DNA from: an uncultured Chlamydiae bacterium
GTDB lineage: Bacteria; Chlamydiota; Chlamydiia; Chlamydiales; Parachlamydiaceae
Direction of reading: 5' to 3'
DNA length: 64,000 nt
Assembly (NCBI GenBank): GCA_963754655.1
Contig: CAVWGN010000001.1
Location: forward strand, 2,752,001-2,816,000
Below, piece after piece: positions 141 through 16,836 of this stretch. The first letter of the stretch is position 1. Every line of letters begins with the position of its first letter. The notes under the pieces are model-generated. The model was not told the DNA's origin. It was given only the letters and a program-made list of their open reading frames with translations, and did not search any database. The translations under genes and the position numbers were made by a program.

Positions 141-2501
141 ATGAATCATCTTGGTCAAATCCCGACAGACCTCACAACTTGTTATCCAGCGAATCCGTGG
201 TGCGAAAAATCTTCGAATGGAAGACGAAAACACAATCAAGATTCTTTATATAAGCCTGATCAAAATGGAGAAGAAAAAACTCAACTTGATTCCGAAGCTC
301 AAGAAAAGACTCAGCTTTGTCAAAAAACGATCCGTTTAAAGACTTCCGATACACAAGACAAAAAACCCTCAAAATACCCTAACAAATCTTGGAAGGAACA
401 AGAGCCAGAATTAAGCAGAGGCAAAGATAAAACCAATAAAACTTATCAAAGGGTATATTCAACCGATTCCTACGCGGAAGAGAAGAGACCGCTCAAAACA
501 AAGGAGAGGGAAAGAGAACAAGAATCGTATTACGACATGGGAGAGAAAGATGATTCTCCTGATAAAGGCAATCCACATCCATTCTCTAATCAACGAAACT
601 CCTCTACAAGAAGCAGGCAATTGGGCGGAAACAAACACAATTCTTATCCTGTCAAATCCTCAACTATTTCGCTTGATTTTCAATATTCCTCAAAAACCCT
701 AATGGTGAATTCAAAAAGAGAGAGTTCAACAAATCAACGATCGAATTCTCTTTTGATTCCTTTCAATAAGCAAATAAATGATGCTGCAAGAAATAGTGAT
801 ATTAAAGAGTGTAAAAAAATTCTGAGAGAGATTGAGCAAGCTGGCTTAAGACCAGATGCCTATTCTTACAATCCAATTATTCACCTATTTGTCAGAAAAC
901 AAGATCAGAAGAAGGTTTATGCTGTCTTTGAAGAAATGAAAGCCAAGGAAGTACTTCCCGATGAAGTAACCTATAATTCTTTAATCAATTTATTTGTGAA
1001 AAAAGAAGATGGGGAAGGAGCTTGCGTTGTCTTTGAAGAAATGAAAGCTAAGGGATTGCTTCCCAATGAGGTGACCTATAATTCCTTGATCAATTTATTT
1101 GTGAAAAAAGAAGATCTGATAGGAGCTTACATCGTCTTTGAAGAAATGAAAGCTAAGGGATTGCTTCCCAATGAGGTAACTTATAATTCTTTGATCAATT
1201 TATTTGTGAAAAAAGAAGATGTGATAGGAGCTTACGCCGTCTTTGAAGAAATGAAAGCTAAGAGATTGCTTCCCAATGAAGTGACCTATAATTCTTTAAT
1301 CAATTTATTTGTGAAAAAAGAAGATATGAAAGGAGCTTACGCCGTTTTTGAAGAAATGAAAGCCAAGGGATTGCTTCCCAATGAGGTGACCTATACGTCT
1401 TTGATCAATTTATTTGTGAAAAAAGAAGATGAGACAGGAGCTTACGCCGTCTTTGAAGAAATGAAAGTGCAGGAAGTTCCTCCCAATGAAGTAACCTATA
1501 CATCTTTAATCAATTTATTTGTGAAAAAAGAAGATGTGAAAGGAGCTTTCGCCGTTTTTAAAGACATGCAAGCTAACAGAGTTTCTCCCAATGAGGTGAC
1601 CTATAATTCTTTGATCAATTTATTTGTGAAAAAAGAAGATGTGGAAGTAGCTTACGCAGTTTTTAAAGAAATGAAAGTGCAGGAAGTTCCTCCAAATGAA
1701 GTAACCTATACATCTTTAATCAATTTATTTGTGAAAAAAGAAGATGTGAAAGGAGCTTTCGCCGTTTTTGAAGAAATGCAAGTCAAGGAAGTGCTTCCCA
1801 ATGAGGTAACCTATAATTCTTTAATCAACTTATTTGTGAAAAAAGAAGATGTGAAAAGAGCTTATGCCGTCTTTGAAGAAATGCAAGCCAAGGAAGTGCT
1901 TCCCAATAAAGTGACCTATAATTCTTTAATCAATTTATTTGTGAAAAAAGAAGATGGGACAGGAGCTTATGCCATCTTTGAAGACATGAAAGCTACGGGA
2001 GTGCTTCCCAATGAGGTGACCTATAATTCTTTGATCAATTTATTTGTGAAAAAAGAAGAGGTGAAAGGAGCTTACGCTGTCTTTGAAGAAATGAAAGCTA
2101 ATGGAGTGCTTCCCGATGAAGTGACTTATCAATCTTTGATTGATCTATTGGTTAAGCTTGATTGTCTAGAACAAGCCGAGGTTCTCTTTTCTTCAAAACT
2201 TTCAATTAAAAAGCACATAGTTCAAGGTTCCTTAGATCTTCATGGATTATCATATGGTGTAGCTTTTGTTGCCTTATCCATTTTTATAAAGTCTCATTGG
2301 GAAAGCGAGTCATTCTTTTTAATCACCGGAAAGGGACTTCATTCTCACAGTAAAGACCTTTATCAAATGAGAGACTTTATGATGGAAAAAATAAAGAAAA
2401 AAATTCCTCATGTAATATGCCAAGTTGACCCAAAGAATAAAGGAAGGTTGATCATTAATCGGAAGAAATTATCAGATTTTAATAAAAATAATAATTCTTA
2501 A
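141..2501 (+). CDS. PPR-SMR protein, copy 1 (13 PPR motifs + capping motif + SMR domain)
   Basis: 35-aa repeats of the form EVTY[N/T]SLINLFVKKEDxxGAYAVFEEMxAxxVxP[N/D] match the P-class PPR consensus. C-terminal LDLHG...LITGKGLHS is the SMR/Smr signature. Start placed at ATG 141 (MNHLGQIP, as in copy 2) after AAAGGTGG; the ORF is open from 120. Confidence 0.93.
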   Translation: MNHLGQIPTDLTTCYPANPWCEKSSNGRRKHNQDSLYKPDQNGEEKTQLDSEAQEKTQLCQKTIRLKTSDTQDKKPSKYPNKSWKEQEPELSRGKDKTNKTYQRVYSTDSYAEEKRPLKTKEREREQESYYDMGEKDDSPDKGNPHPFSNQRNSSTRSRQLGGNKHNSYPVKSSTISLDFQYSSKTLMVNSKRESSTNQRSNSLLIPFNKQINDAARNSDIKECKKILREIEQAGLRPDAYSYNPIIHLFVRKQDQKKVYAVFEEMKAKEVLPDEVTYNSLINLFVKKEDGEGACVVFEEMKAKGLLPNEVTYNSLINLFVKKEDLIGAYIVFEEMKAKGLLPNEVTYNSLINLFVKKEDVIGAYAVFEEMKAKRLLPNEVTYNSLINLFVKKEDMKGAYAVFEEMKAKGLLPNEVTYTSLINLFVKKEDETGAYAVFEEMKVQEVPPNEVTYTSLINLFVKKEDVKGAFAVFKDMQANRVSPNEVTYNSLINLFVKKEDVEVAYAVFKEMKVQEVPPNEVTYTSLINLFVKKEDVKGAFAVFEEMQVKEVLPNEVTYNSLINLFVKKEDVKRAYAVFEEMQAKEVLPNKVTYNSLINLFVKKEDGTGAYAIFEDMKATGVLPNEVTYNSLINLFVKKEEVKGAYAVFEEMKANGVLPDEVTYQSLIDLLVKLDCLEQAEVLFSSKLSIKKHIVQGSLDLHGLSYGVAFVALSIFIKSHWESESFFLITGKGLHSHSKDLYQMRDFMMEKIKKKIPHVICQVDPKNKGRLIINRKKLSDFNKNNNS
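753..2117 (+). repeat. 13 x 105-bp PPR-coding tandem repeat
   Basis: 1365 bp = 13 x 105, from LIPFN to the final PD. Confidence 0.95.
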
Positions 2502-2756
2502 TTAATATATCATTAAAAGCTTAGGATCATTTTCTTGCAAATGTAAAGATAGCTTCTTACTCATGGCACTCTTAACAAATCCGAAAACTTAACAAAGCAA
2601 AGAACTTAAAAAAGCAGAGAATATGATAAACCTCTCTAGTTTCTATTTAAATTGAATTTAGGTTGCTATATATTAAGTTTTGTCTTATCTTTTATAGAAT
2701 TATAAAATAAAATTATATCATTAATTTAATTTAAAATAAGTAAAGGTGAATATTTT

Positions 2757-15406: not shown

Positions 15407-16836
15407 AAATATCAACCTTTAATGATTTTAAATTAAATCAATAATTTAATTTTATTTTTTAATTTTTATAAATACTATAACATAGAAGATAATAATCAAC
15501 AAATAGCAACCTAAATCAATAATTTAAATAGAGGTCGATCCTATCTTCGGCTTGTTAAAAATGCCATAAGAAGCCATCTTTGCATTTGCAAAAATTGATC
15601 TTAAGATTTTAATGCCAAACTAATTAAAAGTTGGTTTTTTATTAAATTCCGATGATTTTCTTCCGTTTTATAATTAGACTTCCCCCATTCTCTGGGTCAA
15701 CCTGGCATTCTACATGAGGAATTTTTTCCTTTATTTTTTTCATCATAAAGTCCCTCATTTGATAAAAGTCTTTACTTTTAGAATGAAGCCCCTTTCCAGT
15801 AATTAACAAGAATGAATCATTTTCCCAATAAGATTTTATAAATATGGATAAGGCGACAAAAGCTGTACCATGCGATAATCCGTGAAGATCTAAAGAAGCT
15901 TGACTCATATGCTTTTTAATTGAAAACTTTGAAGCAAAAAGAACCTCTACTTGTTCTAGATAATCAAGCTTAACCAATAGATCAATCAAAGATTGATAAG
16001 TTACCTCATCGGGAAGCACTTCCTTAGTTTTCATTTCTTCAAAGACAGCATAAGCCCCTTTCACATCTTCTTTTTTCACAAATAAATTAATCAAAGAATT
16101 ATAGGTTACCTCATTGGGAGACATTCCCTTGGCTTTCATTTCTTCAAAGACAGCATAAGCTCCTGTCTCATCTTCTTTTTTCACAAATAAATTGATCAAA
16201 GATGTATAGGTCACCTCATTGGGAAGCGCTCCGTTGGCTTTCATTTCATCAAAGACAGCGTAAGCTCCTGTTACATCTTCTTTTTTCACAAATAAATTGA
16301 TCAAAGATGTATAGGTCACCTCATTGGGAGGCACTCCTTTGGTTTTCATTTCTGCAAAGACGGCATAAGCTTTCTTCTGATCTTGTTTTCTGACAAATAT
16401 GTTAATAATCGGAGTGTAAGAATAGGCATCTGGCCTTAAATCAGCTTTTTCAATCTCTTTCAGAATTCTTTTGCACTCTTCACTATCATTATTTCTTGCA
16501 GCTTCATTTATTTGCTTATTAAAGGGAATCAAACGAGGATTCGATCGTTGATTTGTTGAACTCTCCCTTTTTGAAATCACCGATGGTGTTTTTGAGAAGT
16601 GTTGATGATCAAGCAAAGGATTCGAAGATTTAGCGCAATAAGAATTGTGTTTATTTCCGTCCGGTTGTCTGCTTTTTGTGGATGAATTCCGCTGATTAGA
16701 GAAGGGAGATTGATTTCCTTTATTAAAAGAATCATCTCTATCTCTCATGTTGTGACACGATTCTCGCTTGCTGTCCCTTTCATTTGTTTTAAGCGGCCTT
16801 TTTTCTTTCACATTGGAATCGATTGGATAGACCGTT

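Follow-up and report, generated by a model that had tools for sequence, protein, structure and literature searches.

Introduction

The closest described counterparts of the locus considered here are plant proteins in which a pentatricopeptide repeat (PPR) array precedes a Smr domain. In the PPR code, residues 5 and 35 of each motif specify a base, such that ND reads U, TD reads G, SN and TN read A, and NN is compatible with both U and C (PMC4837458). The sequence motifs LDxH and TGxG are taken to define the eukaryote-type, subfamily-2 Smr domains (PMC3858433, PMC6662315), and in SOT1, whose full-length form reportedly acts as an RNA endonuclease with sequence specificity, TGXG is described as required when RNA is cut and LDXH when DNA is cut (PMC6662315). 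Accounts of PPR proteins in bacteria differ: they have been recorded in Ralstonia, Rhodobacter and Legionella longbeachae, those of the last being listed among eukaryote-like candidate effectors (PMC2824747); L. longbeachae is presented as the one bacterial exception to an otherwise plant and algal distribution of PPR-SMR proteins (PMC3858433); and PMC4029402 says that bacteria have no PPR proteins. Our literature search, which covered one open-access collection, brought up no account of PPR proteins in Chlamydiae. Here, we describe such a family in a stretch of 64,000 nucleotides, hereafter termed the window, from an uncultured Chlamydiae bacterium of the Parachlamydiaceae (assembly GCA_963754655.1, contig CAVWGN010000001.1; G000:C1:2752001-2816000 in our genome set). 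The genome is 3.16 Mb in size, comprises contigs of 3.12 Mb and 35 kb, and has a G+C content of 38.8%.

The window's first 20 kb are occupied by five large open reading frames (ORFs) and two fragments, all of one gene family, and we conclude that this chlamydial genome carries a tandem, designer-like PPR-SMR family whose genes encode genuine P-class PPR arrays. At least six copies are intact, with repeats as regular as those of designer PPR proteins and with both of the nuclease-linked Smr motifs kept. At the two code positions the arrays use a restricted two-letter alphabet. The reading that we favour, and to which we give roughly even credence, is that the proteins are secreted, sequence-specific RNA-binding and possibly RNA-cleaving effectors that have been diversified by birth-and-death evolution.

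Architecture of the PPR-Smr family

With copy 4 as the query, matches span C1:2736203-2772005 at ~11 loci. The PPR-Smr region of the window is best viewed as the distal half of a 37-kb island carrying ~11 tandem paralogs, and four further paralogs, named A, B, C and D, lie upstream of the window. The family members located in the window, together with two distant paralogs elsewhere in the chromosome, are as follows (coordinates are those of the window unless a contig is given).

120..2501, plus strand: copy 1, intact PPR-Smr gene; 793-residue ORF with the conserved start MNHLGQ at 141; disordered N-terminus 141-752, 14 PPR motifs 753-2222, Smr domain ~2223-2498
2757..5330, plus strand: copy 2, intact PPR-Smr gene of 857 residues; 16 PPR motifs 3375-5054, Smr domain ~5055-5327
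6706..8300, plus strand: copy 3, decayed and chimeric; 349-residue ORF 6706-7755 with 6 PPR motifs, three of them N5/H35
12722..15415, minus strand: copy 4, intact PPR-Smr gene of 897 residues; 17 PPR motifs 12983-14767, Smr domain 12725-12982
15642..16829, minus strand: copy 5, 3' part; PPR motifs 15903-16532 and Smr domain, homologous to copy 4 from nucleotide 346
18660..18987, minus strand: copy 5, 5' part; N-terminal 110 codons
19324..20005, minus strand: remnant of a further copy; N-terminal-region fragment 19667-20003 adjoining Smr fragment 19324-19722, PPR array lost
G000:C1:1739496-1741502, minus strand: distant paralog X1; 669-residue frame ending in EFEEINQKETNP repeats and a coiled-coil-like tail, no Smr domain
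G000:C1:2586977-2588842, minus strand: distant paralog X2; 622-residue frame with a divergent Smr domain (LDCH, TGIG)

The two distant paralogs, at 1.74 Mb (X1) and 2.59 Mb (X2), lie outside the island.

Each intact gene encodes a disordered N-terminus of ~205 residues, 13-19 P-class PPR motifs in an unbroken array, and a C-terminal Smr domain of the eukaryote-type subfamily 2. The Pfam family PF13041 (PPR_2) is matched by all five in-window copies with E-values of 2.7e-59 to 9.8e-206 and 5-16 matched stretches each, the PPR families scoring well clear of their cut-offs in all five, and the spacing between motifs, when anchored on a TY dipeptide, is exactly 35 residues in every copy. The N-terminal ~205 residues are collinear among six paralogs at 56-83% identity and are rich in disorder-promoting residues (78%, with only 13% hydrophobic residues); this region has no Sec-type signal and no family match, and the ESM Atlas gave no usable match for it.

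A model of the C-terminus, built on an alignment of 12 sequences, reached a predicted local distance difference test (pLDDT) score of 87.2 and a predicted template modelling (pTM) score of 0.81. In the model, the terminal PPR motif forms helices at motif positions 1-13 and 17-27, and the region beyond it adopts a Smr fold. The best structural match is the plant PPR-SMR protein PAP2/pTAC2 as seen in plastid RNA polymerase structures, with a TM-score of 0.60-0.63, followed by the Smr domains of B3BP/N4BP2, MutS2 and YdaL. The C-terminal Smr domain follows the PPR array directly, within one polypeptide, and the last PPR motif plus Smr superposes on PAP2/pTAC2. At the sequence level, the Smr motif residues H, T, G and G are invariant across the 12 aligned sequences, and LDLH and TGKG are present in all 8 aligned cluster copies. 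The Pfam Smr profile matches all 12 aligned C-termini at E<=1 (best 2.8e-6), and a word-index search with the Smr region alone gave no match. On the evidence of the model and the conserved motifs, the domain is Smr by fold and by motif but not by the Pfam score cut-off.

Three copies are intact in the window (1, 2 and 4); with the upstream paralogs A, C and D, six are intact overall. Copy 4 nucleotides 15-342 match window positions 18987-18660 and its nucleotides 346-1000 match 16829-16181; because the two parts of copy 5 match copy 4 on either side of an IS607-like element, copy 5 represents a single gene split by insertion. Copy 3 has an N-terminus that is unrelated to the family and contains one hydrophobic helix, while the segment from 7756 to ~8300 aligns with copy 2's 3' end at 89% identity but with 12 gap positions and several stop codons, and TGKG is replaced by TGKR. 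Two of its three N5/H35 motifs differ by a single nucleotide, and canonical code pairs are found in only 2 of its 5 scored motifs. Paralog B shifts frame at least three times, which may reflect either decay or indel errors in the assembly. In the same assembly, secY (61048-61779 and 60542-61057) and gap, encoding GAPDH (57210-57668 and 56516-57367), are each split across frames on the minus strand within 56516-61779, as is rpoA, for which the minus-strand frame 58238-59098 covers just the C-terminal half of the model. Since these are essential genes, their split frames point to indel errors in the assembly, rendering frameshift-based pseudogene calls unsafe.

Code residues 5 and 35

The following counts refer to core motifs, defined as in-register 35-residue motifs, of which 46 lie in the window and 107 in the whole cluster. 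Within the window, position 5 is encoded by AAT (22), ACA (14), ACG (6), ACC (3) and AGT (1), and position 35 by AAT (26), GAT (16), CAT (3) and ACT (1); across the cluster, the residues are T57/N49/S1 at position 5 and N59/D42/T3/H3 at position 35. The original prediction, made from the window alone, had position 5 as almost only N or T and position 35 as almost only N or D, set in a near-invariant helix A, with nearly every motif carrying a canonical pair, and each of these statements holds for the cluster as a whole. The pairs at 5/35 are TN30, NN28, TD25, ND17, NH3, TT2, NT1 and SN1, so that 100 of the 107 motifs carry TN, NN, TD or ND and 102 carry one of the eight canonical pairs; of the seven pairs classed as non-canonical by the narrower definition, three are the N5/H35 pairs of copy 3 and the other four occur in copies 2 and 4 and paralog C. 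Within helix A (positions 2-16), the entropy is 1.06 bits at position 5 and at most 0.53 bits at every other position.

For comparison, a baseline was taken from the 120 best database homologues, which are mostly plant P-class PPR proteins; of their 1,243 in-register motifs, 46% carry one of the four pairs and 66% one of the eight. The binomial p for the excess of the four pairs over this baseline is 5.5e-26, a value that overstates the case because the motifs descend from one another by duplication. Over the whole motif, the most variable positions by entropy are 18 (2.13 bits), 31 (1.66), 30 (1.40), 35 (1.29), 33 (1.28), 17 (1.11), and 1 and 5 (1.06 each). What sets the code positions apart is the size of the alphabet: at similar heterozygosity (~0.5), 3 residues occur at position 5 and 4 at position 35, vs 9 at position 18 and 6 at position 31.

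No dependence between the two sites is seen (chi-square p=0.44); their four states carry 1.97 bits. The codons themselves are also informative. Codon 35 is without synonymous variants (AAT 59, GAT 42; AAC or GAC in 0 of 101), and at codon 5 of the core motifs T is never ACT (0/57) and N is never AAC (0/49), such that most T/N differences span two nucleotides and separate old module types that duplication and recombination have spread. T/N switching in the core motifs is therefore mostly a shuffling of old module types as opposed to fresh point toggles. The second motif of the array (motif 1, AYSY...), which is positionally orthologous in 8 paralogs, behaves otherwise: position 5 is AAT in three and ACT in five, position 35 is AAT in four and GAT in four, and all four pairs occur through single-nucleotide changes. 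The first motif (motif 0, LIPFN...) is ND in 8 of 8 paralogs. The earlier image of a two-bit switch accordingly survives for the independence of the sites, their information content and the point toggles of motif 1, but does not describe how most core motifs came to differ.

Predicted RNA words

Because the repeats are regular and both Smr motifs are retained in the intact copies, the plant code yields an explicit target prediction of 13-18 nucleotides for each copy that is testable in vitro. With motif 0 taken as the first motif, the predicted strings are as follows.

Copy 1: UUYYYYAAYAYYU
Copy 2: UGGGAAGGAYYGGYG
Copy 4: UUYA?GAAYYYGUGAU
Copy 5: UAAAU
Paralog A: UYYAYAUYGAUUUUGGAA
Paralog C: UAYA?CYYUAYAAAUGGA
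Paralog D: UGYUUYGYUYUGAAAAG

Those of copies 1, 2, 4 and 5 agree letter for letter with the strings first proposed, and the claim that each paralog spells a different word extends to the upstream paralogs A, C and D, no string being the same as another. When both strands of the organism's own 3.16-Mb genome were scanned, no perfect match was found for paralogs A, C and D or copies 2 and 4, and sites with 1 or 2 mismatches were no commoner than for 30 permuted strings per code string. Paralog D, with 22 sites at <=2 mismatches vs 7.7±5.0 (maximum 20) for its permutations, was judged marginal.

Selection and array evolution

Nonsynonymous nucleotide diversity by codon (piN), expressed relative to the mean synonymous diversity (mean piS), is 0.42 over all motif codons and at most 0.38 at the helix-A codons other than 5 (2-4, 6-13). 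It rises to 1.33 at codon 5 and 0.91 at codon 35, and to 1.49, 1.44, 1.39 and 0.98 at codons 18, 33, 31 and 30, respectively. Codons 5 and 35 therefore belong to a set of six codons evolving near the neutral rate in a strongly constrained scaffold, and since piN at the two code codons roughly equals mean piS, positive selection is not demonstrated. A nearest-neighbour test of phylogenetic signal per codon gave low values everywhere (index 0-0.4), with 5 and 35 inseparable from synonymous sites, and linkage of codons 5 or 35 to flanking variants was limited to weak associations. The collinearity of motifs between paralogs is restricted to the array ends, which makes an orthologous per-site ratio of nonsynonymous to synonymous substitution rates (dN/dS) impossible over whole arrays. 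Outside the arrays, the six intact paralogs have a mean dN/dS of 0.34 for the Smr region and 0.72 for the N-terminus (dS 0.10-0.44), values indicating that the genes are kept by selection. Purifying selection acts on both the scaffold and the Smr domain.

The arrays also bear marks of how they change. The nearest neighbour of a motif lies in the same gene in 39% of cases vs 12% expected, which points to change by local duplication, and adjacent near-identical motifs are found in paralog D and copy 3. At the level of whole genes, the cluster shows gene birth and death. The proposal that positions 5 and 35 are under selection for base reading and diversified specificity is partly supported: the residues at these positions nearly all belong to the code alphabet, but the ratios of 1.33 and 0.91 are no higher than those of codons 18, 31 and 33, and selection for diversified specificity is plausible but unproven. 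The per-site entropy and dN/dS comparison that had been suggested as a check is similarly divided, in that position 5 is the sole variable site of helix A, yet 18, 30, 31 and 33 vary as much or more.

These results bear directly on the view that 5 and 35 are weakly constrained surface sites, that the arrays bind RNA or protein through no readable code, and that the strings carry no information. Such a view would accommodate the near-neutral ratios, which resemble those of the loop codons 18, 31 and 33, the phylogenetic signal shared with synonymous sites, and the failure of the own-genome scan to return a target. It sits poorly with the restricted alphabet, with the occurrence of code pairs in 100 of 107 motifs against 46% in natural homologues, with the lack of any synonymous variant at codon 35, with the concentration of three of the seven non-canonical pairs in a decayed copy, and with the recurrence of the same pattern on an unrelated scaffold in another chlamydial genome, described below. 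We regard it as unlikely, though as carrying real weight.

Distribution and origin of the island

PPR genes are sparsely distributed among chlamydiae. When 400 genomes of the phylum were scored against PF13041 (1 more was left unscored), 26 had matches, as compared with none of 14 control genomes, and the present genome (G000) stands out with 160 first-look candidates as compared with at most 59 in any other. When copy 4 is used as the query, matches turn up in 14 of the family's 72 other genomes, one to four each at 25-48% identity, and several of the proteins concerned end in the same Smr-type domain. Among three same-genus genomes, two have no PPR match and the third has a marginal one (E 1e-4). 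In a large protein database, the nearest relative is at most 55% identical over 44% of the query, most matches are plant PPR proteins, and plant PPR proteins are the best matches outside the chlamydiae. With a profile of the Smr part, 273 representatives were recovered at E<=1e-3 out of 1.84 billion, and PPR-like motifs and S/N-rich N-termini are present in many of them. A search of genome contigs for related loci gave no confirmed relative. In the chlamydial genome G237, an unrelated PPR scaffold has N13/S9/T6 at position 5 with helix A otherwise nearly fixed, and arrays in G278, G417, G383, G011, G006, G035 and G047 likewise use canonical pairs. The G237 family (L048-L050; C5, C10) is itself multi-copy, with a mean motif identity of up to 0.83 and some motifs of 36 residues.

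The cluster is a lineage-specific island. In G045, the closest same-genus genome, the LysR gene that in G000 lies upstream of the cluster is separated by 1.35 kb from the homologue of window ORF 21302-23089, vs ~37.6 kb in G000, a difference that accounts for the whole cluster. The organism belongs to the Chlamydiota, its genome being of the environmental, amoeba-associated type, and a GrgA-family transcription factor is encoded in the window. Contamination by eukaryotic DNA was considered and rejected, as the genes lie within the 3.12-Mb contig between conserved chlamydial genes and insertion sequence (IS) elements. By family profile matches, three transposase-bearing elements sit within the cluster, the third being a precise insertion inside a PPR-Smr gene.

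8492..9529, plus strand: IS110-family transposase ORF (PF01548, PF02371), between copies 3 and 4
10407..11534, plus strand: DDE (IS4/IS5-type) transposase ORF (PF01609, PF05598), between copies 3 and 4
16830..18659, minus strand: IS607-like insertion of 1.83 kb, splitting copy 5
16837-18045, minus strand: TnpB of the IS607-like element, with a Cas12f-like TNB domain
18035-18601, minus strand: serine-recombinase TnpA of the IS607-like element

Two further explanations can be weighed against this background. The first holds that the proteins remain inside the bacterium, where they process its RNAs in the manner of organellar PPR proteins, with the different paralogs serving different chlamydial transcripts. 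Classically, a PPR protein works in the same compartment as its RNA, and the absence of a Sec-type signal is in keeping with an internal role, given that secretion is deduced indirectly. However, the own-genome scan gave no perfect site for the five strings scanned, near-matches arose just as often with permuted strings, G045 lacks the cluster at the syntenic site, IS elements are destroying copies, and a gene class confined to 26 of 400 genomes of the phylum is ill-suited to a housekeeping role. We consider a function on the bacterium's own transcripts quite improbable.

The second explanation sees in the cluster a relic, now decaying, of gene transfer from a eukaryote to a bacterium, which was amplified through unequal crossing-over and the activity of IS elements and has no function today. 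In its favour are at least three disrupted or reduced copies (copy 5, copy 3 and the remnant at 19324-20005), to which the frameshifted paralog B of the present assembly might be added, the three transposase-bearing elements inside the cluster, and the plant affinity of the best non-chlamydial matches. Yet six ORFs of 786-968 residues stay open in a genome of 39% G+C, the Smr dN/dS is 0.34 and the repeat scaffold is strongly conserved, the catalytic-type motifs of Smr are retained in 8 of 8 aligned copies, and PPR-Smr relatives exist in other genomes of the family and among the 273 representative clusters. A functionless relic is, in our judgement, very unlikely, the least probable of the explanations considered.

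Proposed mode of action

Under the favoured reading, that of secreted RNA-directed effectors, the array would bind single-stranded RNA at one nucleotide per motif with its N-terminus toward the 5' end of the target, and residues 5 and 35 would choose the base, provided that the plant code, which we extend here by inference, is valid for these proteins. The Smr domain, which would sit on the footprint's 3' side, might then cut or otherwise process the bound RNA, by analogy with plant SOT1. The proteins would be exported, most likely via a type III system: the genome encodes the type III export gate SctV (914.9 bits vs a cut-off of 692), and next to the island lie genes for a phosphoinositide phosphatase resembling IpgD/SopB and for a DUF4116 repeat protein. 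The targets would presumably be host or competitor RNAs, not those of the bacterium. New specificities could arise from duplication and loss of motifs within arrays, from recombination among the old module types (T5/N5, N35/D35), and from occasional point toggles, with genes being born and lost within the cluster.

Several findings weigh against this reading. Variability at positions 18, 30, 31 and 33 matches that at 5 and 35 and therefore does not by itself mark the code sites; at these two codons piN/piS is ~1 and not clearly higher. Because NN, found in 28 of 107 motifs, reads C or U, several strings are degenerate, and that of copy 1 is largely a pyrimidine tract. The Pfam Smr score of copy 4 is 19.0 bits vs a gathering cut-off of 25.7, and since LDxH is tied to DNA cleavage in SOT1, the Smr domain could act on a DNA substrate. 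What suggests secretion is simply genomic context and the absent Sec signal. Finally, given the frameshifts that the assembly carries in secY, gap and rpoA, some of the 'broken' copies, e.g. paralog B, may in fact be whole genes, and rare codon variants could be artefacts.

A bolder form of the proposal is that the cluster constitutes a natural, evolving library of programmable RNA endonucleases, in which four PPR modules (A, G, U and Y) are shuffled before a constant Smr nuclease and deployed in an arms race whose opponents would be organellar or cytosolic transcripts of the host, or else rival intracellular microbes or giant viruses that share the amoeba. We put this forward as speculation and consider it unlikely. 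Were the predictions to prove true, the PPR code would be known to apply beyond the eukaryotes, ready natural scaffolds for sequence-specific RNA cleavage would be available, and a new class of RNA-directed effectors would be recognized in amoeba-associated chlamydiae.

Genomic neighbourhood

Upstream of copies 1 and 2 lies the same promoter-like hexamer pair (TTTAAA, 17 nt, TATATT; 21-65 and 2646-2708, plus strand). Over positions 1-17000 as a whole there is no excess of promoter-like sites (64 vs 52.8±9.0 in shuffled sequence) or of terminator-like sites (14 vs 12.3±3.8). Among public sequencing runs, none was found to contain the 5' region of copy 4, nor was any RNA dataset. Beyond the cluster, an IS256-family element adds to the IS110, DDE and IS607-like elements, making this an IS-rich region, and several other genes and sites were noted.

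24576-26639, plus strand: protein resembling the IpgD/SopB-type type III effector inositol phosphate phosphatases (PF05925, E 4.2e-28; NF011905, E 3.3e-86, under its cut-off); found in 1 of 3 same-genus genomes when used as the query
28821-30050, minus strand: 409-residue protein made of 12 DUF4116 repeats (E 7e-172), adjoining the island
39593-40498, plus strand: DNA/RNA non-specific endonuclease (PF01223, E 1.5e-56)
42098-42152, plus strand: match to the Rfam family Acido-Lenti-1, a small RNA (38 bits vs a gathering score of 37)
48833-49759, plus strand: HipA-like kinase C-terminal domain (PF07804, E 6.1e-46)
51899-53101, minus strand: IS256-family transposase (NF033543, E 3.1e-114)

Comparison with known systems

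In architecture, the chlamydial proteins resemble the plant PPR-SMR proteins (SOT1, GUN1, pTAC2/PAP2, SVR7/ATP4 and PPR-SMR1), in which a P-class array is followed by a C-terminal subfamily-2 Smr domain, and they share with GUN1, B3BP and LdCSBP the possession of both LDxH and TGxG, as tabulated for these proteins (PMC6662315 Table 1; PMC3858433). They differ in residing on a bacterial chromosome, in bearing a disordered N-terminus of ~205 residues instead of an organellar transit peptide, and in forming ~11 tandem paralogs with far more uniform repeats as opposed to single conserved orthologues. Their Smr sequence is also divergent (19 bits against Pfam; no word-index match). Among bacteria, the nearest parallel is provided by Llo1404 and Llo2643 of L. 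longbeachae, which likewise place PPR and PPR-SMR proteins in an amoeba-associated intracellular bacterium; compared by description only, these are two genes with no tandem family and no described diversification of code residues.

In the regularity of the repeats, the closest likeness is to the designer PPR proteins (dPPR, cPPR; 5i9f, 5i9d, 5i9g, 5i9h, 4pjq), which combine a near-identical 35-residue scaffold with residues 5 and 35 that set the target, and with whose dPPR repeats the terminal motif of the window protein aligns. The chlamydial arrays are, however, natural, their loop positions 17-19 and 28-33 vary too, and because they contain no NS (C-specific) module, C would be read only through the degenerate NN.

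The evolutionary pattern is nearest to that of the plant restorer-like (RFL) PPR clusters, which are described as species-specific tandem P-class genes shaped by local duplication and by variation at RNA-contact residues (PMC5138203). The chlamydial cluster is likewise composed of lineage-specific tandem paralogs. The RFL genes differ in having no Smr domain and in targeting the mitochondrial transcripts of the same organism, and diversifying selection is statistically supported for them, in contrast to the piN/piS of ~1 at the chlamydial code codons. A further analogy, not based on homology, can be drawn with the TAL effectors, secreted proteins of plant-pathogenic bacteria in which two residues in each of a series of near-identical repeats spell a nucleic-acid word and repeat shuffling gives rise to new specificities, although these have another fold, recognize double-stranded DNA and carry no nuclease domain. 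If the island is indeed a library of programmable endonucleases, it would represent the RNA-level counterpart of both the TAL effectors and the plant restorer-like PPR clusters.

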